From a virus (lineage: Duplodnaviria > Caudoviricetes): DNA of 64,000 bases. The translations under genes and the position numbers were made by a program. This document shows positions 3,663 to 21,422 of this stretch, in pieces; positions within the stretch are counted from its first letter, which is position 1; every line of letters begins with the position of its first letter. The stretch lies in the IMG/VR virus record IMGVR_UViG_3300037067_021710; one strand, given 5' to 3'. The notes under the pieces were generated by a model, which was given only the letters and a program-made list of their open reading frames with translations, had not been told where the DNA came from and made no database searches.

Positions 3663-3673
3663 TACTAACAATT
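3663..3673 (+). promoter_or_regulatory. possible late promoter variant TACTAACAATT for the sugar operon
   Basis: One mismatch to TACTAATAATT, about 50 nt upstream of the first operon gene. Confidence 0.35.
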
Positions 3674-3723: not shown

Positions 3724-4326
3724 TTGCTAACAGTAGTTTGGGATGTAGACGAAACATTAAACCATTATATTCAAGAATTATTGGTTTATATAAATTTTTG
3801 TCTTGATAAAAATATAAATTTTGAAAATATAAAGTATTATAATCTGACTAAAAGTCTTCCTTTTTTAACGGAGGTAGAATGTTGGTATTATTTAGACAAG
3901 TTTAAGTTTATAGGAAAATATGAAGAGTTAAAACCAAATGAAAAAATATATGAATGGTTTCAAAAATATGGCCATAAAGCTTATCATATTGCTTTAACAG
4001 CAGCGTCATTACGAGCTTCGCATATCTCAGCTTCTTGGATATTTCAGAACTTTGGGCAATGGATTAGGGGAATACAAATAATACCCTCAGACCCAACTGA
4101 AAATGTTATAATTTATGATAAAAAGAAAATAGATTGGTTAAAAAGAAATAAAGCTGATATTTACATCGAGGATTGTGAAGAGAATTATATAGAAGCTAAA
4201 AAATTAGGATTTGAGAGCTTATTAATAAAAAAGCCGTGGAATAACGGTGAATCAATAGAAATAGTTTTAGAAAAATTGACTAATTTTCTAGGAGTTTATG
4301 ATACGAGTAGCAGACTACATTTTTAA
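3724..4326 (+). CDS. HAD-superfamily 5'(3')-nucleotidase-like phosphatase
   Basis: N-terminal WDVDETL (DxD) and IYIED motif; AGGAG SD, TTG start. Confidence 0.7.
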   Translation: MLTVVWDVDETLNHYIQELLVYINFCLDKNINFENIKYYNLTKSLPFLTEVECWYYLDKFKFIGKYEELKPNEKIYEWFQKYGHKAYHIALTAASLRASHISASWIFQNFGQWIRGIQIIPSDPTENVIIYDKKKIDWLKRNKADIYIEDCEENYIEAKKLGFESLLIKKPWNNGESIEIVLEKLTNFLGVYDTSSRLHF

Positions 4327-6076
4327 ATATCTTGCAGATTATGGTATTAAACATGTTTTTCTAGTAACGGGTGGGGGTTCCATGTTTCTTAATGAAGCTC
4401 TACGAAAAGAAACTAGAATTAAATATGTTTGTAATCATCATGAGCAAGCTTCCGCAATTGCTGCTGAAGGGTATGCAAGAACTTCAGGAAAACTAGCTGT
4501 TGTTAGTGTAACTTCTGGGCCAGGTGGAACTAATACTTTAACTGGAGTTTTGGGTCAATGGGCAGACTCAGTTCCAGTATTATACATATCGGGTCAAGTA
4601 AAATTTAAAACTACACTAGCTTCAGCATCAAATGCTAATTTAAGGCAGTTAGGTGATCAAGAAATTAACATAATTGATATTGTAAAGCCAATAACAAAAT
4701 ATGCTAAAATGATAACGGATCCAAAAACAATTAAAGAAGAATTAAAAAAAGCAATTTTTATTGCTACTTCAGGAAGGCCTGGGCCTGTTTGGCTTGATAT
4801 CCCTCTTGATGTTCAAGGAGCTTTAATAGATGAAAATGCTTTACTTACTTCTGACCAAATTTTTTGGTTAAAACCTAATAATAATATTTATCTAGTTATA
4901 GATGCTTTAAAACAAGCTAAAAGGCCTTTAATTATTGCAGGCCACGGCATTAGAATTGCTAAAGCAAAACAAGAATTGTTAGAATTAATAGAATTATTAC
5001 ACATTCCAGTAGTCACCACATTTAATGGTTTTGATTTAATACAATCTAATCATAATAATTTTATTGGTAGGATCGGAACTTTAGGAAGTAGAGCTGGAAA
5101 TTTTGCTTTACAAAATGCAGATTTAATTATTTGCTTAGGGACTCGAAATAATATTCGGCAAGTTAGTTATGATTGGAAAAATTTTGCTAAAAATGCTAAA
5201 AAGATTATTATAGATATTGATTCTTCTGAATTAAAAAAACCTACAATAATTGGAGACATTCGTATTAACACAGATGTTAAAGATTTTATAGAAGCCTTTC
5301 TTGAAAATTATCACAAAAATTTTATTATAAATCTTGATTGGTTATGGCTACTTTGGTGCCAAGATAAAAAAAAGAAATATCCTGTTATTCTTGATGAATA
5401 TAGAACACAAGAAAGTATAAACCCCTATTATTTTATAGAACAATTAACTACTGAAGCAAATGAAGATGCAATTATTATAGCTGGAAATGGGACTGCTTGT
5501 GTTACTTTATTTCAAGCAGGAATAGTTAAAAAGAATCAACGTATTTTTTGGAATTCAGGTTGTGCTGCTATGGGCTATGATTTGCCTGCAGCAATTGGAG
5601 CGGCTTTTGCTTCTAATAAGTCTGTTATTTGTTTAGCAGGTGATGGAAGTTTACAAATGAATCTTCAAGAATTACAAACTGTAAAGCATCATAATTTACC
5701 TATTAAACTTTTTGTACTAAATAACTCTGGCTATCAATCAATTTATCAAACTCAAAATAATTTATTTGAAGGTAATCTTATCGGATGTACTAAAGAATCT
5801 GGAGTCTCATTTCCTAGTATTCAAAAATTAGCAAAAGCTTATGATCTTAAATATTGCAAAATTAACTCAACTAAACGCTTAAATAAAAACATTACTAAAG
5901 TTTTAAATTATGATGGGCCTGTTATTTGTGAAGTTATTTTATCTAATAACTATATTTTTGCACCTAAACTTTCTTCTCAAAAACAAGAGGATGGAACTAT
6001 GCTATCTCAACCATTGGAAAATATGTTTCCTTTTTTAAGCAAAGAAGAATTAAAGGAGAATATGATTAATGTTTAA
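4298..6076 (+). CDS. thiamine-pyrophosphate-dependent enzyme (acetolactate synthase fold, YerE-like sugar C-branching)
   Basis: HHEQ, TSGPGGTN, GDGSLQMN...NN TPP motifs; lies in a CDP-sugar cluster. Confidence 0.85.
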   Translation: MIRVADYIFKYLADYGIKHVFLVTGGGSMFLNEALRKETRIKYVCNHHEQASAIAAEGYARTSGKLAVVSVTSGPGGTNTLTGVLGQWADSVPVLYISGQVKFKTTLASASNANLRQLGDQEINIIDIVKPITKYAKMITDPKTIKEELKKAIFIATSGRPGPVWLDIPLDVQGALIDENALLTSDQIFWLKPNNNIYLVIDALKQAKRPLIIAGHGIRIAKAKQELLELIELLHIPVVTTFNGFDLIQSNHNNFIGRIGTLGSRAGNFALQNADLIICLGTRNNIRQVSYDWKNFAKNAKKIIIDIDSSELKKPTIIGDIRINTDVKDFIEAFLENYHKNFIINLDWLWLLWCQDKKKKYPVILDEYRTQESINPYYFIEQLTTEANEDAIIIAGNGTACVTLFQAGIVKKNQRIFWNSGCAAMGYDLPAAIGAAFASNKSVICLAGDGSLQMNLQELQTVKHHNLPIKLFVLNNSGYQSIYQTQNNLFEGNLIGCTKESGVSFPSIQKLAKAYDLKYCKINSTKRLNKNITKVLNYDGPVICEVILSNNYIFAPKLSSQKQEDGTMLSQPLENMFPFLSKEELKENMINV

Positions 6077-6830
6077 AAAAGCAAAATTATTTGTTGTTGA
6101 TTTAGATGGTACTTTATGGTTAGGAAGTACTGTGCTTCCTGGAGCCTGGACACTTATAGATACTTTACAAAAAAAAGGTAAAGTTATTTTTTTTACTAAT
6201 ACTTCTACACAAACTTCATGGCAAATATATAAAAAACTTATTAGTTTAGGGTTTAATTGCGAATTAGAAGATGTATATACTTCATCATCATTAACTGCAA
6301 TATACTTATTTGAAAACAAAATAAATAACGTGTATATTATTGGTTCAAAAGCTCTTGAAACTGAAATTAACTCAGCTGGTGTTAAGATACTACGAGATGA
6401 AACTGCAATGAATCTAGTAGTAGGGTTAGATGTGAATTTCAATTATAAGAAAATAACAACTGCCTTAAATATTTTATTAAATGACGGAAAGTTTATTGTT
6501 TGTAATAAAGACAAATGTTTTCCTATTGAAAACGGGAAATTTTTACCTGGATGTGGGTCTATTGTAAGTTCCATTACTACTGCTTCTGATAGAGAACCTG
6601 ATTTTATAGTAGGGAAGCCAAATCCGTATTTACTTTCAAAGCTTTCAAAAAAATATAATATGCATAAAAGTCAAATTGTTGTAATTGGAGATTCTTATGA
6701 AAGTGATTTTCAATTAGCTCTAAATTTTGGGTGCTCTTACATTATCATTGGAAAAAATAACTTTCAATATAAAAATGGTATAGAGGTCACTAATTTAACG
6801 GAGATATTACATGAACACATTAGAATATGA
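6069..6830 (+). CDS. HAD-IIA (NagD-like) hydrolase
   Basis: DLDGTL, GKPN, IGDSYESD motifs. Confidence 0.85.
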   Translation: MFKKAKLFVVDLDGTLWLGSTVLPGAWTLIDTLQKKGKVIFFTNTSTQTSWQIYKKLISLGFNCELEDVYTSSSLTAIYLFENKINNVYIIGSKALETEINSAGVKILRDETAMNLVVGLDVNFNYKKITTALNILLNDGKFIVCNKDKCFPIENGKFLPGCGSIVSSITTASDREPDFIVGKPNPYLLSKLSKKYNMHKSQIVVIGDSYESDFQLALNFGCSYIIIGKNNFQYKNGIEVTNLTEILHEHIRI

Positions 6831-7593
6831 AATGATCGATTCTTTAAAAAGGCTTAAAAATGACTATGGAGTTTTTCAAATTAAAGCAGAATTTGAGAAT
6901 GAGGGTAGTCGACAAGTAGAACTTATGCGGCTTAAAGATGTTGCTGACTATGTTGGATTACCAATAATTCTTAAAATAGGTGGAGTAGAGGCAGTAACAG
7001 ATGTATATGAAGCTTTATCACTTGGAGCAAAAGGAATTATTGCTCCAATGGCTGAAACGGCTTTTGCAGTAAGTAAGTTCTTAGATGCTATCGACACTTT
7101 TATAGCTGAAGACAATCGTAAGGATATTGAGTTTGCTATTAATATAGAAACAATAACTGCTTTCAATAACTATAATGAAATTTTACAATTGGACAAAATA
7201 AAATTATTAAATAGTATTACTATTGGGAGAGTTGATTTTACAGGGTCTTTAAAAAAAGATAGAAGTTTTGCAAATAGTAAAGAAATGCTAGATTATTGCC
7301 TTTCAATTTTTCAAAAAACTAAAAATATAGATTTACATACTGCTTTAGGCGGGGCAATTACTCTTGAGTCTACTTCATTTATTCAAACTCTCATATCTAT
7401 GAGTCTTTTAGATAAATACGAAACTCGAAAATTAGTATATGATAAAAATGCTATTTATACAATTAAAGAAGGGTTGCTTGAAGGAATTAAATTTGAACTT
7501 TTATGGTTAAAAAGTAAAAAACGCTATTACCATCTAATTGCTATCGAGGATGAAAAACGAATTAAAATGATCGAGGCAAGACTTAATGGCTAA
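6811..7593 (+). CDS. HpcH/HpaI aldolase-citrate lyase family protein
   Basis: KIGG.EA, IIAPMAET, INIET, IGRVD motifs. Confidence 0.75.
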   Translation: MNTLEYEMIDSLKRLKNDYGVFQIKAEFENEGSRQVELMRLKDVADYVGLPIILKIGGVEAVTDVYEALSLGAKGIIAPMAETAFAVSKFLDAIDTFIAEDNRKDIEFAINIETITAFNNYNEILQLDKIKLLNSITIGRVDFTGSLKKDRSFANSKEMLDYCLSIFQKTKNIDLHTALGGAITLESTSFIQTLISMSLLDKYETRKLVYDKNAIYTIKEGLLEGIKFELLWLKSKKRYYHLIAIEDEKRIKMIEARLNG

Positions 7594-8686
7594 ATGTAAA
7601 ATTTGTAGTCATAAAATACCTGCATTAGAAAATATTGATTTATTATGTATTAAAGATGTGCCTGAAAGTACTTTTAATTTTTCAGATACAACAATAAATT
7701 TATATATTCATAATTGTAATTTTTGTGGAGCTGTATATTTATCAGATAATATTGTTCCTTTAAGTGTTGACTATGATGTTGTGTATAGAAGTATAGGGTT
7801 ATCTAGTTTACGAGAAACAAAAAAAGAACAACTAAAAAAGTTTATTAAGACTTATAATTTAACAGATAAAACTCTTGTTGAAATTGGTTGTGGTGATGGG
7901 CAATTTTTAGAAATATTTCGAGAACTTAAGATAAATATAGAAGGTATTGAAGTAGGATCGGGAAATTATAATAGGTGCCTTAATAAAAATCTTAAAGTTG
8001 AACATGGGGACATAAGTAGATTAAAAAAGAATAATTATGATGCTTTTTTTACTTTTTATTATTTAGAACATTTACCTTATCCAATTGAATTTATAAAACA
8101 ATTATATTCTATACTTAGACCTGGTGGAATAGGATTAATAGAAGTTCCCAGTTATGATTGTATAGAAAAAAATAATGTTTGGTTAGAATTCACAAAAGAC
8201 CATAGATTTTATTTTAGAAAAAGAACTCTTCAATATTTATTATGTAAATGCGGATTTCAAATAGAGTCTATAGAAACAGATGAAGATACTCTTTGTTTAA
8301 AAGCTATAGTAAAAAAGCCAAATACAACTAATTTTATTTCTATGTTAAATCAAATAAAAAATGATGTAAAAGATTTTAAAAATTTAGTAGATGTATATCA
8401 AGGGTCTTTTGCAATATATGGAGCAGGACATTATGCGCAGTTACTACTCAACCAAGTCTATGCTCAATATCAAATAAAACCAACAAGAATTTTTGATTCA
8501 AATGTGCAAAAGTGGGGAAATAAACTTTGTAATATTTGTATTGAAGATAAAGTTGCATTTGAAAATACTAATGATTATAAAGCAATAATTATTATTTGCG
8601 GCATATATAATAATGAAGTAAGTACTATGCTTACTAACATTAAAACAAAATTAAATAAATCAGTGGAGATTATGACATGGAAATGA
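7586..8686 (+). CDS. class I SAM methyltransferase (sugar C-methyltransferase-like)
   Basis: N-terminal CxxC...CxxC, EIGCGDG, LEH, C-terminal IYGAG Rossmann domain. Confidence 0.8.
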   Translation: MAKCKICSHKIPALENIDLLCIKDVPESTFNFSDTTINLYIHNCNFCGAVYLSDNIVPLSVDYDVVYRSIGLSSLRETKKEQLKKFIKTYNLTDKTLVEIGCGDGQFLEIFRELKINIEGIEVGSGNYNRCLNKNLKVEHGDISRLKKNNYDAFFTFYYLEHLPYPIEFIKQLYSILRPGGIGLIEVPSYDCIEKNNVWLEFTKDHRFYFRKRTLQYLLCKCGFQIESIETDEDTLCLKAIVKKPNTTNFISMLNQIKNDVKDFKNLVDVYQGSFAIYGAGHYAQLLLNQVYAQYQIKPTRIFDSNVQKWGNKLCNICIEDKVAFENTNDYKAIIIICGIYNNEVSTMLTNIKTKLNKSVEIMTWK

Positions 8687-9732
8687 CTGTAAGAGAAACA
8701 AAAAATAGGCTAACACTGCAAGAAAAAAAACCATTAGCTTATGCGAAGATTATTAAACACCCCGAAAAAATTCTAAAAAAAGAATGCGTAGCAATGATTC
8801 AACTCCAATATAATTACTTATGTAATATGCGTTGCAAGCACTGCAGCATCGAAAGACTTAAAAATAATCCTGGTAAAAATCAATTAACTGTTCCTGATGT
8901 AAAACGTATTGCTGATCAGGCTGATGCAATAGGATTAGGAAGTATTTGTATTACTGGTGGAGAGCCTCTTATGTTTCCAGATTTAAAAGAAGTAATGGAA
9001 GCAATTGGCCCAGAAAGATTTGTAATTTCTATGGATACTAATGGATGGTTACTTACTGAAGAAAAAGTTAAATGGTTAGCTGCTAATGGTTTAGATAGAA
9101 TACATTTAAGTATGGATGGTCTTGCAGAAAATCATGCTAAGTTTAGAAAAACTAAAGGTTCATGGGAAAGAAATTTAAAAGCTATAGAATACTGTAAAGC
9201 ATATGGTCTTGACACAATTATAAATATAGTTGCTACTAAAAGTCTAGTTATAAGCGGGGAGCTTATTAAACAACTTGATTATATAGCTCAATTTGGAGTA
9301 CATGCAAGCATAATATATGCAAAACCCATTGGGTCTTTTGAAGATAGTAAAAATGAAATTTTAAATACTGAAGATCTTGCTTTTATTCAATCTTTAACAA
9401 GTAAATATAATTGTTCAACTCATTTATCTTTAAATTGTGGACATTATTTTGGGTGCTTATGCTTAAAACGCCATTTATCAATTTCTGCTTCAGGTGATTT
9501 ACTGCCTTGTCCTTGGATACCAATTACACTTGGAAATATTTTTGAGGAAGACTTAGCCACAATTATAAATCGTGGTTTAGAAATGCCTTGGTTTTCTTAT
9601 GATCATCAACAAAGTTGCCTTTGTGGAAATGAAGATACTTTCTTTTATAAAAATATTATGCCTCAAATAAATAAAGCTACAACATATCCAGTTAAGTATA
9701 CTGAAATTGACTGGCATTTAGATAAAGCATAA
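8677..9732 (+). CDS. radical SAM/SPASM protein
   Basis: CNMRCKHC, TGGEP, C-terminal Cys cluster with GDLLPCP. Confidence 0.9.
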   Translation: MEMTVRETKNRLTLQEKKPLAYAKIIKHPEKILKKECVAMIQLQYNYLCNMRCKHCSIERLKNNPGKNQLTVPDVKRIADQADAIGLGSICITGGEPLMFPDLKEVMEAIGPERFVISMDTNGWLLTEEKVKWLAANGLDRIHLSMDGLAENHAKFRKTKGSWERNLKAIEYCKAYGLDTIINIVATKSLVISGELIKQLDYIAQFGVHASIIYAKPIGSFEDSKNEILNTEDLAFIQSLTSKYNCSTHLSLNCGHYFGCLCLKRHLSISASGDLLPCPWIPITLGNIFEEDLATIINRGLEMPWFSYDHQQSCLCGNEDTFFYKNIMPQINKATTYPVKYTEIDWHLDKA

Positions 9733-9751
9733 TAAAGTTGAGAAAACTAAA

Positions 9752-12593: not shown

Positions 12594-12607
12594 AAGGAGT
12601 CAATATT

Positions 12608-13252: not shown

Positions 13253-13254
13253 TT

Positions 13255-14073: not shown

Positions 14074-14075
14074 TT

Positions 14076-14726: not shown

Positions 14727-15496
14727 TGAATTATTTATTAGGAACTTCTGCGTATAGTTGCCCAGAGCTGTTAGAAAAATGTATTGTGAGTTGGGATAAA
14801 CACATAGACCGAGTTGTGTATTTCGACGGTTATTATTATAAGAAAATTTTCAAGAGTTTGCTTGAAAATAATATTATTGAGAGTAACGTTAATTGTATTT
14901 TAGAACCAAAAATACCTGATCACATAGGAGTTAGTGGGTCATGGAATAGAATACTAAGATTTGGTTTTGAAGTATTAAATAAGGACTATGTAATAATGGT
15001 TGGCTCTGATACTGTTATGAAACCAGGATTTTTAGACACAGTACTAACAGACTTAGAATTAAAAAAACCTGATTTTGCTGTAGGATATAATTGTTGTTTT
15101 AATTGTTGGGCAATGAGTAGAAAATGCTATGATGTTGTGGGTTTATGGGATGAAAACTTCTTTCCTGCTTATTGGGAAGATCTTGATTACCATTTTCGAA
15201 TTGTAAATGCTAATTTGACTATGATACAAGTTGGGCAAGATGGACTACTTGAACATTGTGGATCTTCAACTATTAGAACTTGCCCAGAACGTGATCAAGC
15301 AAATAGCAGAACTTTTGTAAGAAATAAACATTATTTAGAAACAAAGTGGAATGGCCCTATTTTTACGAGTGAAAATTTTAAAACTCCGTTTAACGATCCA
15401 GAAGCCACATTAGAAGATTGGGAACTACAAGAAGCTGAATACGCAGAGAAAAGAAAAATTTGGAAAGAAGTTGAAGATAAACTAAATAAGGATTAA
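14714..15496 (+). CDS. glycosyltransferase family 2
   Basis: GVSGSWN, VGLWDENFFPAYWEDLDY, H.GSST. Confidence 0.8.
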   Translation: MGKIMNYLLGTSAYSCPELLEKCIVSWDKHIDRVVYFDGYYYKKIFKSLLENNIIESNVNCILEPKIPDHIGVSGSWNRILRFGFEVLNKDYVIMVGSDTVMKPGFLDTVLTDLELKKPDFAVGYNCCFNCWAMSRKCYDVVGLWDENFFPAYWEDLDYHFRIVNANLTMIQVGQDGLLEHCGSSTIRTCPERDQANSRTFVRNKHYLETKWNGPIFTSENFKTPFNDPEATLEDWELQEAEYAEKRKIWKEVEDKLNKD

Positions 15497-15499
15497 TAA

Positions 15500-16126
15500 A
15501 TGCTTATTACATTATTAACGACTTCAAGTGATTCTTTTTGGTATATATTTAGACATACTGTGCCAAATAAAATGGAGTACTGTTTACGTTGGGGAATACA
15601 ATTAACAATTAGAAAACAATTTCTACGAGATGGTGGGCCTACAATTGAACGACCACAATTCATTTTAGATGTTTTAGACACATGCGATTGGCTTTGGTTC
15701 ATGGGTGGAGATACTCTTATTATGAATCAAACTATTGATGTAAAGCGGTTTATTAATGACAAGCATAATCTTATTATTGGTCAAGATGTAAATGGTATAA
15801 ATAATGATGTTTTCTTTTTAAAAAATTCAGAGGCTTCAAAAGAGTTTTTACGACAAGTTATAGCTCTTAAAGACACTCATCATAACGATCAAGCAGCTAT
15901 GCAAGAAATTATAGATAAAAATTTAGTCCCTGAATTAAATCATTGTATTGTACCTCAAAAATTTTTTAATGCTTATCTATATGCTACTGAACCTGCTTAT
16001 TTTGCTTATCCAAAAGACTATGAAGGAAATTTTGTTATAGGAGATTTTGTTCTTCATTTAGCTGCTATTGATAATTATCGACGTGAAGAACTTATTAATG
16101 AATATTTGCCCAAAGTAATTAAATAA
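15500..16126 (+). CDS. nucleotide-diphospho-sugar transferase (GT34/GT77-like)
   Basis: WLWFMGGDTLIMN, QD.NGIN..VF, DQAA, FNAY, GDFVLHLA. Confidence 0.7.
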   Translation: MLITLLTTSSDSFWYIFRHTVPNKMEYCLRWGIQLTIRKQFLRDGGPTIERPQFILDVLDTCDWLWFMGGDTLIMNQTIDVKRFINDKHNLIIGQDVNGINNDVFFLKNSEASKEFLRQVIALKDTHHNDQAAMQEIIDKNLVPELNHCIVPQKFFNAYLYATEPAYFAYPKDYEGNFVIGDFVLHLAAIDNYRREELINEYLPKVIK

Positions 16127-17172
16127 TGAATAATAAAATTAGTATAATTATGCCTGTTTATAACTCTGAAAAATACTTAAAAGAGTCTATAGAAAGTGTT
16201 TTAAAACAAGAGTATATAAATTGGGAATTAATTTTAATTGATGATGGATCTACTGATCTTAGCTCGGTTATTTGCAACCAGTATACTATAGAAGACAATA
16301 GAATTAAATTTATAAGACACACTCATACAGGGCTACCTAGTGTTATAAGAAATATTGGTTTAAAGGTTTGTACTGGTAATTATATTACTTTTTTAGATTC
16401 AGATGATTATCTAAATGCTAATGCTCTTAGCTTACTAGATCATATGCTTACAGTGAGAGACAGTAGTATTTTTATAATTGGAAACTTTACTATTATAGAA
16501 AATAATAAAATTAAAGAGCGTGGTGATAAATTTCCTTCCAATCATAGATTTTTTACTTTTTCTATGATTATTGATTATATTTTAGCCTACTTAAAAGAAC
16601 CTAATAAATATACTTTATTTAACCCATGTTGGGGTAGATTATACAGCGCAAAAATTATAAATGAGAATAATCTTAAATTCGATGAAGACTTATGTATATT
16701 TGAAGATACAAAGTTTAATTTTGAATATTTACAATATATCAATAAAACTCTTTATATTAGCGATAAAATATATAACTATAGAATGCAAGATGAATTTAAG
16801 TCTCTTACTTTTAGTGTAAATAATATAAATAAGTTATTTGACTTTATTAAAGCATTAAAATTTATTAGACTTTTGTTACGAAATTATTTAAGTGAAGAAA
16901 CTATAACGGCTAAAGTAGGGCATACGATTATTTCTTTAACTATTATACAATTAATAAGAATATGCGGTCAGATAAATTTGCAAAATAAACAAAAAACATT
17001 TGAATTTTTAAAACAACTTTTACATAGTGAAGAATTAAGAAGCAATTTAAAATATTATTCTCCTAATAAAAATGATAGTCGTCTTATTCCCTTATTTCTA
17101 TTTTTAAAATTAAGATTTTTTCTTGTTCTTATTGCTAAATATAAATTTAAAAAACGGTATATAAAAATATGA
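16126..17172 (+). CDS. glycosyltransferase family 2
   Basis: ISIIMPVYN, IDDGSTD, RNIGL, FLDSDD, FED. Confidence 0.9.
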   Translation: MNNKISIIMPVYNSEKYLKESIESVLKQEYINWELILIDDGSTDLSSVICNQYTIEDNRIKFIRHTHTGLPSVIRNIGLKVCTGNYITFLDSDDYLNANALSLLDHMLTVRDSSIFIIGNFTIIENNKIKERGDKFPSNHRFFTFSMIIDYILAYLKEPNKYTLFNPCWGRLYSAKIINENNLKFDEDLCIFEDTKFNFEYLQYINKTLYISDKIYNYRMQDEFKSLTFSVNNINKLFDFIKALKFIRLLLRNYLSEETITAKVGHTIISLTIIQLIRICGQINLQNKQKTFEFLKQLLHSEELRSNLKYYSPNKNDSRLIPLFLFLKLRFFLVLIAKYKFKKRYIKI

Positions 17173-18311
17173 GTCTTGTTGAAAAAATAAAAAATAGCTC
17201 TTTTCCAATTGTAATATTCGGAGCTGGTATAGCTGGAAAATTTACTTTAGACTTTTGCAAAAAAAATAATATAGAAGTGGAGGGCTTTTGCGATAATAAC
17301 CAAAATAAAAGAGAGAAGTTGTTTTATGGTCTAAAAGTAAATTCTCTTTTACAAATAAACCATAAGCATAAAAATGTTTTATTTTTAATTTCTAATTTAG
17401 ATATAAATGACACAGTCCAGCAATTAAAACTTTATGGGTTTAATTATTGGATGTCGTGTAATGAAATACTAAAAGATGTTAATGATAGGATAGTTTCTAA
17501 TATGATTGTAAGTCATGATAACTACCTTAATCAAGATATTTTATTTATACGTGGAATAGATATTATAATCACTGAAAAGTGCTCTTTAAAATGTAAAGAT
17601 TGTTCTAATCTTATGAATTATTATGAAAAACCAAAAAATTGTGATACTAAAATTTTAAATCAAGAAATTAAAAACTTTTGTTTAATAGTAGATAAAATAG
17701 GAGAAGTAAGAATTATCGGTGGTGAGCCATTTATGAATAAAGATGTTCACTTAATTGTACAGCCACTATTAACAAATGATAAAATTAATCAAATTGTAAT
17801 TTATACAAATGGAACTTTTTTACCAACAATAAAACAGCTTGAAGTTTTTAAACATTCAAAAGTATCTTTTTATATTTCAAATTATGGCAATTTATCAAAA
17901 AAGTTTTCTCAGTTATGCGAGTTACTTACAAAGGAAAATATTCCTTTTGTTGTTCCAGAAATGCGATGGACTGAGTGCTCTATAATAGCTCAATTTAATA
18001 GAACAGTAGAAGAAAATCAGAAAGTATTTGATGATTGTTGTGTAAAAAATCTACTTACATTATCAAATAATAAGCTATATAGATGCCCATTTTTTGCTAA
18101 CGCAGATAGACTAAGAGCTATACCAGATTTTTTGGATGAATATATAAACTTATCGTACAATCCTACAAAGAATGAAATTAAAAAATATTTATTAGATACT
18201 TGTTATCTACACGCTTGTGAGTTTTGTGCAGGAAGAGCTTTCTATGATAAAGAGATAGAAGCAGCAATACAAACAAAACAGCCGATTTCATATATAAAAT
18301 ATTCGGAGTAA
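17169..18311 (+). CDS. radical SAM protein with N-terminal Rossmann-like domain
   Basis: IFGAGIAG; CSLKCKDC; IGGEP; C-terminal YRCP and CEFC. Confidence 0.85.
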   Translation: MSLVEKIKNSSFPIVIFGAGIAGKFTLDFCKKNNIEVEGFCDNNQNKREKLFYGLKVNSLLQINHKHKNVLFLISNLDINDTVQQLKLYGFNYWMSCNEILKDVNDRIVSNMIVSHDNYLNQDILFIRGIDIIITEKCSLKCKDCSNLMNYYEKPKNCDTKILNQEIKNFCLIVDKIGEVRIIGGEPFMNKDVHLIVQPLLTNDKINQIVIYTNGTFLPTIKQLEVFKHSKVSFYISNYGNLSKKFSQLCELLTKENIPFVVPEMRWTECSIIAQFNRTVEENQKVFDDCCVKNLLTLSNNKLYRCPFFANADRLRAIPDFLDEYINLSYNPTKNEIKKYLLDTCYLHACEFCAGRAFYDKEIEAAIQTKQPISYIKYSE

Positions 18312-18314
18312 TTA

Positions 18315-19082
18315 ATGAAAGTAGTAATTTTAGCTGGGGGTATGGGGTCTCGACTCTCTGAAGAAACTATAAAAATTCCTAAACCTATGGTTGAGATAGG
18401 TGGAAAACCTATTTTGTGGCATCTTATGAAATATTATTCTTCATACGGGCTTAATGATTTTATTATTTGCTGTGGTTATAAAGGCTATCTTATTAAAGAG
18501 TATTTTGCAAATTATCATATGCACAATTCAGATATGACAATTAACTTAAGTACTGGCAATGTTAAATATAAGTATTGTACCTCTGAAAATTGGAATGTTA
18601 CTTTAGTAGATACAGGCATTGATACATTAACAGAAGAACGTTTACTAAAAATAAAACAATATGTAGATACTGAAGCTTTTTGTTTAACTTACGGAGATGG
18701 GCTCTGTGATGTTAATATTCCAGAACTTGTAGGTTTCCATTTACGTGAAGGTAAATCTGCTACCGTAACGGCTATTAAAAGTCAAGGAAGATTCGGAGCA
18801 TTAAAAATTAATGAAGATGATAATGTTACTGCTTTTATGGAAAAAATTATAACTGAAGAGTCTTGGATTAATGGTGGATTTTTTGTTTTTGAGCCAAAAA
18901 TATTTCAATGGTTAAAACCTAATGCTATGTTAGAACAAAGCGTTTTACCTATGTTATCTCAAACTAATGATCTTATGGCCTATAGACATTTTGGAAATTG
19001 GCAATGTATGGATACAATGCATGATAGATTTGTTCTTGAAGATATGTGGAATTCAAAAAAAGCTTTTTGGAAAAATTGGTAA
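18315..19082 (+). CDS. rfbF: glucose-1-phosphate cytidylyltransferase
   Basis: ILAGGMGSRLSEET..PKPMVEIGGKPILWH, LTYGDG, WQCMDT. Confidence 0.93.
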   Translation: MKVVILAGGMGSRLSEETIKIPKPMVEIGGKPILWHLMKYYSSYGLNDFIICCGYKGYLIKEYFANYHMHNSDMTINLSTGNVKYKYCTSENWNVTLVDTGIDTLTEERLLKIKQYVDTEAFCLTYGDGLCDVNIPELVGFHLREGKSATVTAIKSQGRFGALKINEDDNVTAFMEKIITEESWINGGFFVFEPKIFQWLKPNAMLEQSVLPMLSQTNDLMAYRHFGNWQCMDTMHDRFVLEDMWNSKKAFWKNW

Positions 19083-20134
19083 TGTTTAATAATATTTACA
19101 AAAATAAAAAAGTTTTTATTACTGGTCATTCTGGGTTTTGTGGTACTTGGCTCACAACTTGGCTATTAAAATTAGGAGCTGATGTGTGCGGATATTCTCT
19201 TGACCCAAATACTAATCCAAATCACTTTTCATTATTAAATATGCAAGAAAAATCTAATTTAAAAAATTGGATTTGTGACATTAGATCTCTTGAGTCATTA
19301 AAACATTGTATTGGTTCATATGAACCTGATATAGTATTTCACTTAGCTGCAGAACCACTTGTAAAGCAGTCATATTTAACCCCAATGAAAACTTTTGAAG
19401 TAAATACTATTGGGACTTTAAATTTATTAGAAGCTTGCAGAGATGTCAAGTCTATTAAAGCAATATTGATTATAACGACAGACAAAGTGTATGAAAATCT
19501 AGAACAAGGAGAAAAATTTAAAGAGACTGATCGACTTGGTGCTCATGACCCATATTCTACATCTAAATCTTGTGCTGAACTTATTACAGAATCATATAAA
19601 AAATCTTTTTATGATACTAATACTTTAATTTCTACAGTTCGCGCAGGCAATATTATTGGAGGGGGTGATTGGGCCCAAGATAGATTAATTCCAGATCTTA
19701 TTAAAGCTACAATAAATAACAAAGAAGTTGAAATTCGAAATCCAAATTCAACAAGACCTTGGCAACATATACTTGATGCAATAAGTGGTTACTTACTTTT
19801 AGGAGAAAAATTATTAAATAATGAAAAAACTTATGAAGGAGCTTGGAATTTTGCTCCAGTAAATGAAGAAGCTATTTCAGTCAAAAAAGTTATAAATTAT
19901 GCAAAACAGGCTTGGATAAAAATTCAAAGGCCAATAGTAGCTTCAATAGAAACTACCCAACACGAAGCAACCTCATTACAATTAGATTCTACAAAAGCTT
20001 GGTTTTTATTATCATGGACTAATAAGTTTGCTACTCAACAAGCAGTTGAATGGACAATAGAATGGTATAAAGAATTTTATGAAAATAATAAAATTATAAC
20101 AATGGAGCAGCTTGAAAAATATGAGGGCCTCTGA
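19082..20134 (+). CDS. rfbG: CDP-glucose 4,6-dehydratase
   Basis: ITGHSGFCG, TTDKVY, DPYSTSK, RAGNIIGGGDW, RPWQH. Confidence 0.93.
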   Translation: MFNNIYKNKKVFITGHSGFCGTWLTTWLLKLGADVCGYSLDPNTNPNHFSLLNMQEKSNLKNWICDIRSLESLKHCIGSYEPDIVFHLAAEPLVKQSYLTPMKTFEVNTIGTLNLLEACRDVKSIKAILIITTDKVYENLEQGEKFKETDRLGAHDPYSTSKSCAELITESYKKSFYDTNTLISTVRAGNIIGGGDWAQDRLIPDLIKATINNKEVEIRNPNSTRPWQHILDAISGYLLLGEKLLNNEKTYEGAWNFAPVNEEAISVKKVINYAKQAWIKIQRPIVASIETTQHEATSLQLDSTKAWFLLSWTNKFATQQAVEWTIEWYKEFYENNKIITMEQLEKYEGL

Positions 20135-21422
20135 AATAATTAAGCATGAAATTTTTGAAAAAGTAAAAGAATATTATAAAGCTGAACAATTAGAAAAAAA
20201 ACCTTCTAATAAAATCAATTATGCTGGGCGAGTATATGATGAAAAAGAACTCATTAATTTGGTTGATGCTTCTCTAGAATTTTGGTTAACTTCTGGAAGA
20301 TTTACAAAAGAATTTGAAAAAAAGCTTGCTGATTTTTTAAATTTAAAATATTGCTTATTTGTAAATTCGGGTTCTTCTGCAAATCTTTTAGCTTTTATGG
20401 CTTTAACTTCCCCATTATTAAAAGAAAGAAAAATAAATAGAGGAGACGAGGTTCTTACTACAGCATGTGTATTCCCTACTACTATTTCTCCAATAGTACA
20501 ATATGGAGCAGTCCCTGTGTTTGTTGATGTTGACTTCGGAGGCAATATTAATTCTGATTTATTAGAAAGAGCTTTAACTTCAAAAACAAAAGCAGTAATG
20601 ACTGCGCATACTCTTGGATATCCATTTGACATAGACAAAGTAAAAGAATTTTGCAATAAAAATAATTTATGGCTTATTGAAGACAACTGTGATGCATTAG
20701 GCTCAAAATACAAAAATCAATATACTGGAACATTCGGAGATATAGGAACTTCTTCCTTTTTTCCAGCACATCACATTACCACGGGAGAAGGCGGAGCTAC
20801 TTATACAAATAATCCGCTTCTTTATAAAATTATGAAGTCTATGAGGGACTGGGGTAGAGATTATAAATGTGATAATTGCGTACCTGATTGTAATAAAAGA
20901 TATTCATATGAAGATGATCAATTAAAAAATTATGATTGCAGATATACCTATGCTTCATTTGGGTATAATCTAAAAGCAACAGATTTACAAGCTTCTATTG
21001 GAGTAATTCAATTAGATAAGCTTTTAAAATTTAAAAAAGCTCGACAAAATAATTGGGAAAAAATATACAGAGGCTTAAGTGATTTCCCTTTTAGAAGACA
21101 TGACTACTATGACCCTAATTGGTTTGGGTATTTATTTATAATACCAAATGAAGTTGGTTTTTCTAGAAATGATATTGTTGAGTATTTAGAAAATCATAAT
21201 ATTCAGACTAGAAATTTATTTGCTGGTAATATAACTAAACATAGTTGCTTTGACTCTTTAGAGTTAAATAAAGACTATAAAATTTGTGGTGAACTAACAA
21301 ATACGAATATACTAATGAATCAAGCTTTTTGGATAGGGGTATATCCAAGATTAGACGATAATCAAATAGACTATGTAATTGAAACTTTTAAAAATTTTTT
21401 AAATTTAAGAAAAAAGTGTTAA
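20121..21422 (+). CDS. rfbH: CDP-4-keto-6-deoxyglucose 3-dehydrase (E1/DdhC)
   Basis: VNSGSSANL, SFFPAHHITTGEGG (His in place of the aminotransferase Lys), RDWGRD, GYNLK. Confidence 0.9.
   Translation: MRASEIIKHEIFEKVKEYYKAEQLEKKPSNKINYAGRVYDEKELINLVDASLEFWLTSGRFTKEFEKKLADFLNLKYCLFVNSGSSANLLAFMALTSPLLKERKINRGDEVLTTACVFPTTISPIVQYGAVPVFVDVDFGGNINSDLLERALTSKTKAVMTAHTLGYPFDIDKVKEFCNKNNLWLIEDNCDALGSKYKNQYTGTFGDIGTSSFFPAHHITTGEGGATYTNNPLLYKIMKSMRDWGRDYKCDNCVPDCNKRYSYEDDQLKNYDCRYTYASFGYNLKATDLQASIGVIQLDKLLKFKKARQNNWEKIYRGLSDFPFRRHDYYDPNWFGYLFIIPNEVGFSRNDIVEYLENHNIQTRNLFAGNITKHSCFDSLELNKDYKICGELTNTNILMNQAFWIGVYPRLDDNQIDYVIETFKNFLNLRKKC

Follow-up and report, generated by a model that had tools for sequence, protein, structure and literature searches.

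A putative cytoplasmic glycan-building operon in an uncultured T4-related phage, tentatively assigned to virion glycosylation

Background

YerE-like enzymes, among which JanthE is counted, are described as serving lipopolysaccharide (LPS) sugars in the available part of a review (PMC12247030), and the PDB entry 8RPH is named in the available part of a paper on JanthE. According to the accessible text of PMC9306805, ErwE takes 4-hydroxy-2-oxo acids made by an aldolase and does not accept pyruvate, and the corresponding gene arrangement is read there as the source of a longer hydroxy-2-oxo-acid donor. Virion glycosylation has been established in mycobacteriophages (Freeman et al. 2023, as cited in the accessible part of PMC12619734).

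In this study, a window of 64,000 nt from a viral contig of 89.8 kb (CheckV completeness 41%) was investigated. A preliminary description had proposed that the window holds an operon of rare-sugar and glycosyltransferase genes that glycosylates the virion or, alternatively, DNA or a host glycan intermediate. The gene content, integrity, relatives and probable target of this operon are presented here.

Results

Judged by its genes, the element is a phage, as already described, and an uncultured T4-related one; matches to a capsid protein, a T4-type portal, an NAD ligase and a sigma factor were obtained. The phage looks lytic and T4-like, and a diderm host is suggested by its genes for an OmpA-family protein and an SLT lysin.

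The operon occupies positions 3724-21645 of the plus strand and contains 19 tightly packed enzyme genes and one 63-aa ORF (Table 1). The 19 plus-strand ORFs form an unbroken chain from 3724 to 21422, followed by the small ORF at 21454-21645, with gaps of -37 to +31 nt at the junctions and overlaps at 13 of the 19. Neighbouring ORFs are nearly all on the minus strand, so the operon is inverted relative to its flanks. GC skew is positive at 4-22 kb; the rest is negative apart from 36-38 kb, a stretch that coincides with another plus-strand gene. The tightly coupled, inverted operon of the preliminary description is thereby borne out, with its count of 18 genes raised and its end moved to 21645.

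Table 1 Features of the operon and its borders (positions in the window)
Feature	Position	Strand	Assignment	Basis
Motif	3663..3673	+	TACTAACAATT, promoter-like	one-base variant of recurrent TACTAATAAT(T/A)
p1	3724..4326	+	HAD-like phosphatase (tentative), 200 aa	N-terminal DVDET motif
p2	4298..6076	+	YerE/JanthE-type ThDP carboligase, 592 aa	three TPP domains
p3	6069..6830	+	HAD-IIA phosphatase, 253 aa	Pfam Hydrolase_6 1.2e-21
p4	6811..7593	+	class II pyruvate-aldolase-like, HpcH/HpaI fold, 260 aa	Pfam HpcH_HpaI 1.1e-6
p5	7586..8686	+	Zn-ribbon, class I methyltransferase and C-terminal Rossmann-like domain, 366 aa	Methyltransf_23 4.5e-19
p6	8677..9732	+	radical SAM/SPASM enzyme, 351 aa	Pfam Radical_SAM 2e-28, SPASM 9e-6
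p7	9752..10765	+	extended SDR, 337 aa	Epimerase family 8e-40
p8	10762..11655	+	FkbM-family methyltransferase, 297 aa	TIGR01444 95.6 bits vs cut-off 37.7
p9	11655..12593	+	GT-B-like glycosyltransferase (tentative), 312 aa	ESM Atlas, structure
p10	12608..13252	+	GT-A-fold glycosyltransferase, family without Pfam domain, 214 aa	AF2 pLDDT 91.7
p11	13222..14073	+	extended SDR (NDP-sugar reductase/epimerase type), 283 aa	ESM Atlas
p12	14076..14726	+	p10 paralogue (54% identity), 216 aa	comparison with p10
p13	14714..15496	+	GT-A-type glycosyltransferase, 260 aa	phrog_29879 'galactosyl transferase' 1.3e-17
p14	15500..16126	+	GT34-like glycosyltransferase, 208 aa	Pfam Glyco_transf_34 2.2e-16, 60.8 bits vs cut-off 23
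p15	16126..17172	+	GT2 with hydrophobic C-terminal stretch, 348 aa	Glycos_transf_2 5e-31
p16	17169..18311	+	N-terminal Rossmann-like and radical SAM domain, 380 aa	Radical_SAM 3.6e-7, PglD_N 0.0049
p17	18315..19082	+	RfbF, glucose-1-phosphate cytidylyltransferase	TIGR02623 349.8 bits vs cut-off 300.25, full length
p18	19046..20134	+	RfbG, CDP-glucose 4,6-dehydratase	TIGR02622 454.5 bits vs cut-off 278.45
p19	20112..21422	+	RfbH/E1-type CDP-4-keto-6-deoxyglucose 3-dehydrase	NF011936 577.7 bits vs cut-off 423
p20	21454..21645	+	63-aa ORF with CxxC...CxxC	sequence read
Hairpin	21655..21690	.	hairpin with A-run and T-run flanks	read directly in sequence

The operon appears to be led by an imperfect match to a recurrent structural-gene promoter-like motif. 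The near-match, which had been noticed before, lies one base from the recurrent form and 50 nt before the TTG start of the operon. Of the 11 sites of the recurrent form in the 89.8-kb contig, 8 are followed within 150 nt by an ORF that starts with ATG; these ORFs include the portal gene, the capsid gene (at 125 nt) and the immediate upstream neighbour of the capsid gene. The hairpin beyond p20 is likely a bidirectional terminator closing the operon; an automated scan did not list it, probably since loops longer than 8 lay outside its settings.

The inversion of the block, its position 3.7 kb from the contig end and a GC content of 43% in window positions 1-2000, against about 29% elsewhere, would suit host DNA misjoined to phage DNA. 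Two runs, each from a different and unrelated metagenome study (landfill 2018 and groundwater 2022), have Logan contigs that cover positions 2801-22700 with zero differences, at even depth within and outside the operon (11-13 and 41-55); one of these runs may itself be the source of the window. The 3.6-kb junction is spanned by single contigs in both runs, and the 21.7-kb junction by one 33-kb contig in one run, being met in the other only by two contigs with a 30-nt overlap. The GC content of the operon (0.24-0.30) resembles that of the rest of the phage, the phage's own promoter-like motif precedes it, and other viral contigs hold related cassettes. An assembly artefact is thus barely credible, and the block is a real phage operon of 20 genes, counting the 63-aa ORF.

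The enzymes comprise RfbF, RfbG and RfbH, one TPP enzyme, one HpcH/HpaI-like protein, two methyltransferases (p5 and p8), two radical SAM enzymes (p6 and p16), one clear HAD-IIA phosphatase (p3), one weakly HAD-like protein (p1) that has DVDET at its N-terminus and three SDRs besides RfbG. Six GT-like proteins were assigned (one GT2, one GT34-like, one PHROG galactosyltransferase-like, one GT-B-like and two paralogous GT-A-fold proteins). The inventory in the preliminary description is largely recovered, although it had listed two SDRs, and its second HAD phosphatase (p1) and one of its approximately six transferases (p9) are tentative. In agreement with it, no flippase, polymerase or ABC exporter was matched by Pfam in the operon, nor was an initiating phosphoglycosyltransferase; family searches and a hydropathy scan found neither a ligase nor a Gtr-type membrane protein there. 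By a crude 19-residue hydropathy scan, no operon protein has two separate hydrophobic segments, and five of the six transferases have none. The exception is p15, with a single hydrophobic, K/R-interrupted C-terminal stretch at about residues 320-340 (KD maximum 2.05 at residue 320), and the earlier label 'all-soluble', as far as hydropathy indicates, needs this stretch as a caveat.

RfbF, RfbG and RfbH all exceed the NCBIfam equivalog cut-offs, and their conversion of glucose-1-phosphate to CDP-4-keto-3,6-dideoxyglucose would be a well-supported first step. In p19, His stands where the DegT aminotransferase has Lys, and the Cys-rich insert has C-x2-C-x3-C spacing against C-x-C-x7-C in relatives. 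A reductase of the DdhD type, the E3 of the established pathway, was not found within the 89.8-kb contig and would come from the host or the unsequenced part of the genome; owing to this absence and the divergent Cys spacing, C3 deoxygenation is not assured. The small ORF p20 gave no family match in Pfam, NCBIfam or PHROG searches.

The best PDB match of p2 is 8rph (2.1e-122), whereas the top-scoring acetolactate synthase reaches 4.2e-80. The GDG and NN motif columns of p2 are invariant in the alignment. Among 80 bacterial loci with a p2 homologue, RfbF, RfbG and RfbH lie within 10 kb in 27, 30 and 34, respectively. In the phage and in bacterial relatives, this ThDP enzyme is linked with two HAD phosphatases and a p4-like protein. 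Family matches of p1 are weak (phrog_420 at 0.0017, Pfam NIF at 0.26), and in the bacterial loci L096 and L101 its homologues (36-38% identity) come immediately after that of p2. The second phosphatase, p3, scores 133.6 bits against a TIGR01460 cut-off of 100.15 and has syntenic homologues in L076 (44%) and L096 (37%). The aldolase-family assignment of p4 was upheld by profile and fold, through remote similarity (12-17% identity, TM 0.52-0.61): its family profile matches PDB HpcH/HpaI aldolases at 6e-6, and the best folds for its AF2 model (pLDDT 93.4) are HpaI, SwHKA and YfaU. Homologues of p4 occur in 8 loci, every one beside a p2 homologue. In the bacterial locus L085, NeuB and a HAD protein follow the p2 homologue, in the p4/HAD place.

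Because p2 travels with two HAD proteins and a p4-like aldolase, the branch is probably longer than the C2 branch of yersiniose. The CDP-yersiniose route invoked earlier is recovered in its RfbF/G/H and YerE-type enzymes, and the product is probably a different sugar with a longer branch, like erwiniose or caryophyllose. As a member of its family, p2 would place an acyl branch on C4; the donor is probably a hydroxylated 2-oxo acid of greater length than pyruvate, predicted to be made by p4 and dephosphorylated by p1 and p3, which would give an erwiniose- or caryophyllose-type branch.

The positional counterpart of p5 in L076 (26% identity) carries the C-methyltransferase domains PF08421 and PF08484; direct similarity of p5 to a PF08484 protein is weak (9e-4), and p5 is probably a sugar C-methyltransferase. 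A homologue of p6 (61% identical) stands beside p2 and p4 homologues in viral locus L004, and the nearest PDB entries of p6 are MoaA, SuiB, SkfB and BlsE. The other radical SAM enzyme, p16, matches 7wzv (5.8e-6), then MoaA and BtrN, and a radical SAM gene occupies the equivalent place in L076. A candidate YerF-like reductase is p7: viral loci L017 and L018 have a homologue of it (45% and 31%, respectively) immediately after that of p2, and in bacterial loci L111, L108, L133 and L124 the p7 homologue (39-46%) lies within about 4.8 kb of the p2 homologue. Methyltransf_21 was matched by p8 at 3.5e-18. No Pfam match at 0.01 was obtained for p11, which scored 0.98-0.99 to PF01370 clusters in the ESM Atlas (structure TM 0.91). 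In a third step, p7 and p11 may reduce the sugar, p5 and p8 methylate it, and the radical SAM enzymes tailor it further.

Among the transferases, p9 has neither a Pfam nor a PDB sequence match; among ESM Atlas clusters it falls closest to viral hypotheticals and the 'WavQ family' (0.97), and its structure reaches TM 0.65-0.72 to GT1-family clusters. Its homologues in L017 (64%) and L018 (41%) each adjoin a p10 homologue. Together, p10 and p12 appear to found a family without a Pfam domain and with a modelled GT-A fold, reported here for the first time. A total of 247 p10 homologues were found, of which the best 120 have no Pfam domain; 11 of 34 longer relatives have one (GT2, SAM methyltransferase, GT92 or PF27674). 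The DDD motif is invariant, and fold matches include AvpGT (3.9e-8), GlcAT-P, WrtF, SpsA and TarP. Homologues of p13 adjoin p10 homologues in L017, L018, L028 and L065, with Pfam GT2 in three of the four. The nearest NCBIfam families of p15 (WaaH-, TuaG-, EpsE- and PglI-type GT2s) act on lipid-linked or LPS acceptors, and p15 is 41% identical to a GT2 of an Omnitrophota LPS cluster holding a Wzy_C ligase.

The bacterial contig L076 keeps the sugar-gene order of the phage, with identities of 63% (p2), 44% (p3) and 68% (p4), and continues in phage order with genes for a C-methyltransferase, a radical SAM/SPASM enzyme, an SDR, a radical SAM enzyme, a GT2 and RfbF/G/H. Compared with L076, the phage has an extra seven-gene block, p8-p14, in which the FkbM methyltransferase and an SDR accompany five of the six transferases. 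After that of L076, the closest p2 homologue (60%) is the one in L085, where it belongs to an LPS cluster that also has Wzy_C, PMT_2 and GT9 genes. The sugar genes appear to be copied from a bacterial LPS-type cluster, with a phage-typical block, p8-p14, inserted into the copy; both the gene order shared with L076 and the putative addition are new here.

Discussion

The operon is best read, at slightly less than even confidence, as a phage-encoded cytoplasmic system for virion glycosylation. Here p9, p10, p12, p13, p14 and p15 would build an oligosaccharide on an acceptor needing no flippase or exporter, most likely proteins of the phage's own virion, at a late stage of infection. A virion target is supported by the one-base variant of the portal/capsid-region motif, by finding no exporter, flippase or initiating transferase in the operon and, indirectly, by the place of the p10/p12 family in virion gene modules of other phages. 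Of 24 long-flank viral loci, 8 have their p10-family gene inside a head, neck or tail module, and in four of these (L021, L051, L063 and L074) a SAM methyltransferase lies upstream. Virion-unrelated genes (morons) can occupy structural modules too. Against a virion target, p10-family genes lie in sugar-gene cassettes away from structural genes in 11 of the 24 loci, and the cassette stands beside replication genes in L017 and beside a portal gene in L018. Glycosylated mycobacteriophage proteins have a reported C-terminal tail, whereas the capsid, portal and neighbouring putative structural proteins of this phage share none.

Alternatively, the branched sugar might be added at the inner membrane face to host lipid-linked O-antigen, LPS-core or capsule intermediates, exported by a host flippase and ligase, and so alter the cell surface, which could block superinfection or stop progeny adsorbing to debris. 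This is unlikely, albeit well short of negligible. The LPS role described for YerE-like enzymes, the synteny with L076, the LPS setting of the L085 homologue and the probable diderm host speak for it, and a membrane-bound host acceptor fits p15 because of its hydrophobic, K/R-interrupted helix and its LPS or lipid-linked relatives. Large transferase and sugar clusters of T4-like cyanophages are likewise interpreted as cell-surface modification in the available part of PMC12801897. Nevertheless, neither a flippase, polymerase or ligase nor an initiating phosphoglycosyltransferase or Gtr-type membrane protein was found in the operon, five of its six transferases are free of hydrophobic segments, p10-family genes lie within virion modules in 8 of 24 loci, and an apparently lytic, T4-like phage carries the operon behind a structural-gene-type motif.

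Transfer of the sugar or glycan onto a base of the phage DNA prepared by hydroxymethylation or in another way, as in T-even phages and TET/ThyS-linked phage clusters, is improbable, even though the phage is T4-related and its contig incomplete. The accessible part of bioRxiv 10.1101/2023.12.21.572611 describes DNA GT-A enzymes with R...DDD...EDY/F and TarP as best PDB match; in the p10 family, at least 90% of 40 members have R10 and DDD is invariant at 82-84, p10 itself has E-Q-Y at 143-145 (only Q144 being invariant family-wide), and TarP ranks 41 among its fold matches. These motifs are, however, generic to GT-A enzymes. No ThyA-like hydroxymethylase, TET/JBP or C5-methyltransferase was found in the 89.8 kb, the TET search having no positive control, and ThyX and a dCMP deaminase indicate an ordinary dTMP supply. 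Base-preparing enzymes almost never co-occur with the p10 family: among 50 records, TET/JBP was found in two (in L036 about 2 kb away) and ThyA-like genes in none, and the six records at least 90% complete have neither. Fused p10 relatives bear transferase and methyltransferase domains, none of them DNA-related. A glycosylated metabolite or free oligosaccharide, soluble or lipid, as the product in place of a decorated macromolecule, for instance with signalling, anti-defence or antimicrobial functions, is improbable. The ThDP enzyme, aldolase-like protein, radical SAM enzymes, C-/O-methyltransferases and transferases do resemble natural-product sugar tailoring, antibiotics are among the compounds with branched sugars (available parts of PMC9306805 and PMC12247030), and the top PDB fold of p10, AvpGT, was crystallised with a nucleoside. 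Yet no PKS, NRPS or terpene aglycone genes and no exporter were found in the operon, the six transferases point to an oligosaccharide, and the p10 family has its place in virion modules.

Structure of the operon and integrity of the assembly

The operon consists of 19 plus-strand ORFs without a break, followed by a 63-aa ORF (numbered p1 to p20 in order), and almost every other ORF in the window lies on the minus strand (see the table of feature coordinates). Junctions between the ORFs range from −37 to +31 nt, 13 of the 19 being overlapping, and the block ends at a hairpin with an A-run and a T-run on its flanks. GC skew is positive at 4–22 kb and negative elsewhere except at 36–38 kb. The GC content of the operon is 0.24–0.30 against 0.27–0.34 in the remainder of the window, where the outlier is the contig end at 0.43. 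The sole tRNA in the window is a tRNA-Leu, and none lies within the operon.

Coordinates of the operon and of the other features discussed in the text
Feature	Position	Strand
Uninterrupted ORFs p1 to p19	3724-21422	+
p19 (RfbH)	20112-21422	+
63-aa ORF (p20)	21454-21645	+
Hairpin ending the operon block	~21655-21690	
Contig end of deviating GC content	1-2000	
ORFs in the contig end	1008-1967; 448-861; 2-448	-
684-aa Walker-A protein	21810-23864	-
tRNA-Leu	27891-27976	
Astacin-family metalloprotease	29784-30464	-
Lone plus-strand gene beside the capsid gene	36952-38172	+
Capsid protein	38227-39699	-
Sites of TACTAATAATT before two genes	40487; 23878	-
S-adenosylmethionine decarboxylase-like gene and PTH2 peptidyl-tRNA hydrolase	50866-51228 (-) and L015:5922-6473	
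Methyltransferase fragment and homing endonuclease	L017:7784-9084	
TET/JBP dioxygenase	L036:10790-12091	
Tandem p10 homologues with radical SAM genes	L069:10648-15276	

The preliminary description attributed the block to the phage and proposed an assembly check, which was run on two metagenome runs from two studies (landfill, 2018; groundwater, 2022) and bears the attribution out. All sampled words of window positions 2501–12500 were present in both runs, and contigs from both spanned 2801–22700. The left junction was bridged by a single contig in each run (2801–5113 and 2801–5527); the right junction was bridged by a 33-kb contig (5084–22700) in one run and reached only by two contigs sharing 30 nt in the other. 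Because one run may itself be where the window came from, no more than one of the two counts as independent. With zero differences, even depth (11–13 and 41–55, both operon flanks included) and bridged junctions, an assembly artefact is extremely improbable as an explanation of the operon, and a chimera is very unlikely.

At 89,842 bp, the record is a viral contig that lacks terminal repeats and has a CheckV completeness of 41%. Phage genes in the window encode a capsid protein (phrog_138), an NAD-dependent ligase, a sigma-70-type factor, an SLT lysin and a tail protein, together with a weak match to a T4-type portal. Neither megablast with the operon nor tblastn with the capsid protein retrieved a close relative from the annotated phage records searched, which may exclude near-identical entries. 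The capsid protein was not found in the records of five loci related through the cassette (L017, L018, L004, L069 and L053), nor p2 in those of the capsid relatives L001–L003; these negatives are uninformative because all of the records are fragments. The only hints of the host are the low GC content, Shine-Dalgarno sites, a gene resembling OmpA and the sampling of landfill and groundwater.

CDP-sugar genes and the putative branching module

The RfbF, RfbG and RfbH functions named in the preliminary description are encoded by p17, p18 and p19, which all exceed curated equivalog cut-offs: 349.8 bits for TIGR02623 (glucose-1-phosphate cytidylyltransferase; cut-off, 300.25), 454.5 bits for TIGR02622 (CDP-glucose 4,6-dehydratase; cut-off, 278.45) and 577.7 bits for NF011936 (E1 3-dehydrase; cut-off, 423). 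In the alignment, PAHH of p19 stands against PGKN of a DegT aminotransferase; His thus replaces the Schiff-base Lys, which we take to be the hallmark of E1. The Cys-rich insert of p19 has the spacing C-x2-C-x3-C, and three RfbH-type relatives have C-x-C-x7-C. An E3 reductase (DdhD; Fer2 plus FAD/NAD-binding) was not found: the 89.8-kb record, which is 41% complete, matched neither PF00175 nor PF00111; controls for these searches were positive in 11 and 12 of 14 genomes. Together with the spacing in p19, this may reflect a variant electron-transfer arrangement.

The ThDP enzyme p2 contains three TPP domains and a GDG...NN cofactor motif, and scores below the cut-off of every acetolactate synthase equivalog. 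Its top PDB relative is 8rph (2.1e-122), with acetolactate synthases (AHAS) far behind (4.2e-80). The entry 8RPH is named in a paper on JanthE. A review counts JanthE among the YerE-like enzymes and presents YerE-like lyases as the decarboxylase subclass that uses isolated ketones (PMC12247030). Judged by sequence, p2 is best placed with the YerE-like ThDP carboligases, closer to YerE-group structures than to acetolactate synthases. Genes for CDP-4-keto-3,6-dideoxyglucose are its neighbours in the operon. Within 10 kb of a p2 homologue, RfbF, RfbG and RfbH homologues were detected at 27, 30 and 34 of the 80 bacterial loci kept, and DegT-family matches occurred in all 11 viral loci with p2 homologues.

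Three further genes accompany p2. The p3 product is a HAD-IIA phosphatase, and p1 has a DVDET start and weak family matches. The p4 product matched Pfam HpcH/HpaI at 28.5 bits (cut-off, 25), and a family profile of ten members matched HpcH/HpaI aldolases in the PDB (6e-6) over a region covering the invariant E113 and D142, which the alignment suggests to be metal ligands. The nearest folds to the p4 model (pLDDT 93.4) are HpaI, SwHKA, YfaU and HpcH (TM 0.52–0.61). We predict p4 to be a remote HpcH/HpaI member of the class II pyruvate-aldolase type, with a TIM-barrel fold and conserved Glu and Asp.

The module is conserved in bacteria. Locus L076, on a contig binned as Candidatus Omnitrophota, carries in the phage order homologues of p2 (63%), p3 (44%) and p4 (68%), a C-methyltransferase with PF08421 and PF08484 (26% to p5), an rSAM/SPASM enzyme, an SDR, an rSAM enzyme, a GT2, RfbF, RfbG and RfbH. 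The phage operon therefore corresponds to the L076 module plus an inserted block, p8–p14, of five transferases, an FkbM methyltransferase and the SDR p11. Homologues of p1 directly follow p2 homologues in two further bacteria, those of p4 occur in eight loci, each near a p2 homologue, and the viral contig L004 retains p2, p4, an SDR, p6 and an RfbH-type gene. The p2 homologue of another Omnitrophota contig (L085) belongs to an LPS cluster that also contains Wzy_C, PMT_2 and GT9; next in order come a NeuB-family enzyme and a HAD phosphatase, a pair that is an alternative route to a dephosphorylated 2-oxo sugar acid. The sugar module was apparently captured from an LPS-type cluster, and as a conserved unit it seems to point beyond yersiniose.

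Published passages on erwiniose synthesis state that the ErwE gene adjoins a pyruvate aldolase, that ErwE takes 4-hydroxy-2-oxo acids and refuses pyruvate, and that in a 'unifying scheme' polyhydroxylated 2-oxo acids are proposed as donors for caryophyllose-type sugars (PMC9306805). Family membership, synteny and fold are observed directly, and the substrates and the order of steps are inferred by analogy with ErwE: p4 with p1 and p3 would supply a hydroxylated 2-oxo-acid donor to p2, and the product would be a long-branched 3,6-dideoxyhexose that is then methylated and tailored. The conserved p1–p3–p4 module of phosphatases and an aldolase-like protein would argue for a donor other than pyruvate. 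The YerE-group enzyme and RfbF/G/H of the CDP-yersiniose pathway cited earlier are present, but yersiniose itself, with pyruvate as donor and a C2 branch, is probably not the product on this reading of the module.

Tailoring enzymes and glycosyltransferases

The p5 product combines a zinc ribbon, a class I methyltransferase and an extra C-terminal domain; its direct homology to PF08484 C-methyltransferases is weak (9e-4), and its assignment as a C-methyltransferase is made because of its position in L076. An FkbM methyltransferase is encoded by p8, and extended SDRs by p7 and p11. Two radical SAM enzymes are present: p6, of the SPASM type, matches another phage rSAM/SPASM protein at 3e-4 over the radical SAM core only, and p16 has a Rossmann-like N-terminal domain. 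In the viral locus L017, an FkbM methyltransferase is reduced to a C-terminal fragment followed by a GIY-YIG/NUMOD3 homing endonuclease, by which the gene seems to have been disrupted.

Among the transferases, p15 belongs to GT2, p14 is GT34-like (2.2e-16), p13 matches phrog_29879 'galactosyl transferase' (1.3e-17), and p9 is GT-B-like by the ESM Atlas only. Sequence searches of the PDB gave nothing usable for p9, p10, p11 and p13. The p10 and p12 products are paralogues (54% identity), and their profile retrieved 247 proteins at E ≤ 0.001 among 717 candidates; the best 120 of the 247 have no Pfam domain and are all named 'hypothetical'. D82-D83-D84 is invariant in 40 p10-family sequences, which also share R, G and Q positions. 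The p10 model (pLDDT 91.7) has a Rossmann-like GT-A fold with DxD, matching AvpGT, GlcAT-P, WrtF and SpsA with a Foldseek probability of 1.00; TarP is also among the best, and GT2-like domains of giant viruses and phages are matched as well. Pfam domains (GT2, SAM methyltransferase, GT92 or PF27674) were detected in 11 of 34 longer p10 relatives, which suggests that a p10-type enzyme works in series with transferases and sugar methyltransferases. The family has no Pfam model and may already fall under the viral GT-A profile of Pyle et al.

Genomic context of the p10 family

Of 70 candidate p10 loci, 59 were confirmed by scanning viral contigs, and a metagenome scan found no p10 relatives. Among viral loci, the core p2-p7-p9-(p8)-p10-p13 is common to the phage with L017 and L018 only. 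Context was analysed at the 24 p10 loci with the longest flanks, where 107 neighbour proteins were examined by Pfam and 78 by PHROGs. A head/neck/tail module holds the p10-family gene in 8 of the 24 (L020, L021, L032, L038, L043, L051, L063 and L074). The gene order is tail terminator, methyltransferase, p10 homologue, major tail protein and tape measure in L074, and capsid, methyltransferase, p10 homologue and head-tail adaptor in L051. The homologue follows the large terminase gene in L066 and lies two genes ahead of the portal gene in L018. Eleven p10 loci are situated among NDP-sugar genes (GDP-mannose dehydratase, PF08484 C-methyltransferase, RmlC, GT2 and radical SAM), two lie beside replication or other non-structural genes (L028 and L029), and the context of L052 and L058 is ambiguous. 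Downstream of two tandem p10 homologues, the viral locus L069 carries an rSAM/SPASM gene, a methyltransferase gene and a B12-binding radical SAM gene split by an intein with an HNH endonuclease.

Promoter-like motifs

The motif TACTAATAAT has 11 sites in the contig, 8 of them with an ATG ORF start ≤150 nt downstream; the genes preceded in this way include those for the portal and the capsid protein (125 nt for the latter), the one immediately upstream of the capsid gene and the 684-aa gene on the right flank. A one-base variant of this structural-gene motif, TACTAACAATT, is located 50 nt ahead of the operon start. With one mismatch allowed, the 11-mer has 8 matches in the window against 5.2 expected, a count attained by 12 of 100 shuffles, and is thus no rarer than chance; the signal is therefore the placement of the sites and not their number. 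The near-match to the late motif reported earlier before the operon stands in this sense, as a variant at a fitting position but with a count at chance level. A scan for sigma-70 promoters and terminators was likewise at chance level (promoter-like, 114 against 122 expected; terminator-like, 4 against 5.5). The promoter-like motif TACTAATAATT stops just 1 nt and 4 nt ahead of the start codon in two minus-strand genes that begin with ATG, the latter encoding the 684-aa protein; if it is a −10 element, it would imply leaderless or very short-leader mRNAs.

Candidate targets of the glycan

Virion proteins are the acceptor that we favour, with a confidence close to but short of even. The habit of the p10 family of sitting in structural modules, the variant of the structural-gene motif and the lack of export genes speak for this target, as does, by analogy, the mycobacteriophage precedent. 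The neighbours of the operon, namely a beta-helix protein, coiled-coil proteins and the 684-aa Walker-A protein, for which there is no Pfam or PHROG name, look structural or packaging-related and are in line with the same target. No C-terminal acceptor tail common to 14 candidate virion proteins (capsid, tail) was found. Remodelling of a host glycolipid or of the envelope is possible but unlikely: the p15 C-terminus is of membrane type, p15 is kin to the GT2s of LPS clusters, the sugar module is of LPS origin, and clusters of T4-like cyanophages are read as surface modification in a passage by their authors (PMC12801897). Against it, and in agreement with the preliminary description, no flippase, polymerase, exporter or initiating transferase was matched by Pfam or NCBIfam across the 20 ORFs. 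Genes of a Wzx/Wzy- or ABC-dependent O-antigen or capsule cluster, a ligase included, were likewise not matched, and a crude hydropathy scan revealed no polytopic protein but single buried-helix-like peaks only, plus the hydrophobic C-terminus of p15.

The enzyme making a hydroxymethyl or hydroxy-pyrimidine (ThyA-like, TET/JBP) usually clusters with the DNA transferase. The record of this phage (89.8 kb, 41% complete) contains ThyX and dCMP deaminase genes, and no TET/JBP, ThyA-like or C5-methyltransferase gene was found in it. Across the p10 family, 50 of the 59 p10-locus records were searched, with TET/JBP genes in 2 of the 50 and ThyA-like genes in none; the 6 p10 records that are at least 90% complete had neither. 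The absence is not proof, because the record has an estimated completeness of 41% and none of the 14 control genomes gave a positive in the TET search, which did match two viral records. Published passages give R...DDD...EDY/F as the motifs of DNA GT-A enzymes (bioRxiv 10.1101/2023.12.21.572611); the likeness of p10 to them is a generic GT-A feature. With no base-preparing enzyme found in the record and so sparse a family link, DNA glycosylation is still less probable than a small-molecule product, itself improbable, and the remaining probability belongs to something else. In the viral record with L036, a TET/JBP dioxygenase gene lies approximately 2 kb downstream of genes for a GDP-mannose dehydratase, a C-methyltransferase and a p10 homologue, and that with L061 also combines a p10-family gene and a TET/JBP dioxygenase gene; in these two, a DNA target is worth its own look.

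Taken together with virion proteins as acceptor, a more specific and rather doubtful reading is that a T4-like phage makes an undescribed higher-carbon sugar and displays it on capsid or tail in an oligosaccharide built by six soluble transferases, with p10 and p12 as the virion transferases. The sugar would, equally tentatively, be a 3,6-dideoxyhexose activated as its CDP derivative; it would bear a long hydroxyacyl branch and undergo C- and O-methylation and remodelling by radical SAM enzymes. If this were true, the p10/p12 family (at least 247 members, 59 viral loci, no Pfam domain) would represent widespread unrecognised virion-protein glycosyltransferases, and sugar-coated particles would be common in environmental phages, far beyond mycobacteriophages.

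Comparison with known systems

CDP-yersiniose and CDP-erwiniose of Gram-negative O-antigens are made by DdhA-D plus YerE/YerF in Yersinia pseudotuberculosis and by ErwE/ErwF/ErwI/ErwJ in Pectobacterium atrosepticum. The phage operon shares with these pathways the RfbF/G/H equivalogs, a ThDP carboligase of the YerE group, a neighbouring SDR that is a candidate for the side-chain reductase and, as in the ErwE cluster, an aldolase-type partner. It differs in being phage-encoded, in that DdhD/E3 was not found, in having no Wzx, Wzy or ligase, and in its additional methyltransferases (C- and O-type) and pair of radical SAM enzymes; unlike in the erwiniose cluster, the aldolase-like p4 has an HpcH/HpaI-type and not a BphI-type fold, and two HAD phosphatases lie alongside.

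Freeman et al. in 2023 reportedly described virion glycosylation in mycobacteriophages (Che8, Corndog and Myrna), where soluble phage transferases, presumed cytoplasmic as here, act on capsid or tail proteins. In contrast, the present operon greatly exceeds those systems in size and supplies a rare nucleotide sugar of its own, the capsid and tail candidates have no common C-terminal tail, and the phage is T4-like with a probably diderm host. In the chlorovirus PBCV-1, soluble virus-encoded GT-A transferases and sugar methyltransferases (A064R and partners) build a methylated capsid oligosaccharide in the cytoplasm. The p10-family relatives fused to transferase and methyltransferase domains resemble the multidomain A064R, but PBCV-1 is a eukaryotic virus with different sugars. 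Phage DNA hypermodification (T4 alpha/beta-GT; 5mYOX/ThyS-linked systems) likewise uses phage GT-A and GT-B enzymes with shared generic GT-A motifs, sometimes with sugar-nucleotide genes; unlike there, a base-preparing enzyme was not found here and the p10 family is almost never linked to one. The cell-wall synthesis or modification clusters of the T4-like cyanophages S-SCSM2R, S-SCSM1 and P-SSM2 similarly contain many transferases and NDP-sugar enzymes; they rely on UDP, dTDP, GDP and Kdo-type enzymes, and published passages on them mention no CDP-3,6-dideoxy pathway or ThDP branching (PMC12801897).

Both glycan islands in phages and the glycosylation of virions have been described before, the targets of the islands being almost never established. 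Literature searches turned up cellular work and no report of a phage-encoded YerE or yersiniose branched-sugar pathway. The present case is set apart by a phage CDP-3,6-dideoxy pathway with YerE-type branching, its apparent capture from an LPS-type cluster, the putative donor-forming module and the p10 family, for which Pfam has no model. Among phage sugar-and-transferase islands, the operon is unusually complete and chemically unusual, a case of a bacterial LPS sugar module apparently captured and rewired with phage transferases. Its ThDP enzyme, aldolase-like protein and phosphatases form a compact syntenic set for testing the 'unifying scheme' of long acyl-branched sugars, and the p10 GT-A family in virion modules makes particle glycosylation testable across many phage lineages. 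A virion glycan coat, if real, would matter for host recognition and stability and for escape from recognition by hosts or grazers.

Other features of the phage genome

The phage sequence is identical over 19.9 kb in the landfill (2018) and groundwater (2022) metagenomes. Serine and threonine make up 17% of the capsid protein, whose central stretch is rich in Ser, Thr, Ala and Gly and could conceivably, if exposed, form an O-glycosylation surface. A GATRIGKT sequence resembling Walker A and a Walker B of the DE type occur in the 684-aa protein, which looks like a divergent large terminase but has no Pfam or PHROG match. The contig end has 43% GC against approximately 29% elsewhere, which suggests a recent acquisition because the composition differs; it encodes a 319-aa Ala/Gly-rich protein with a right-handed beta-helix (Pfam Beta_helix, 4.6e-5) that may be a tail spike or depolymerase. 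The lone plus-strand gene beside the capsid gene has a weak homing-endonuclease PHROG match and a DUF7487 domain, and probably arrived as a mobile endonuclease. The phage genome also has a gene resembling S-adenosylmethionine decarboxylase (3.6e-7) and one for a PTH2 peptidyl-tRNA hydrolase (3.6e-27), and the window encodes an astacin-family (M12A) metalloprotease (Pfam, 6.2e-22), which is unusual in a phage.
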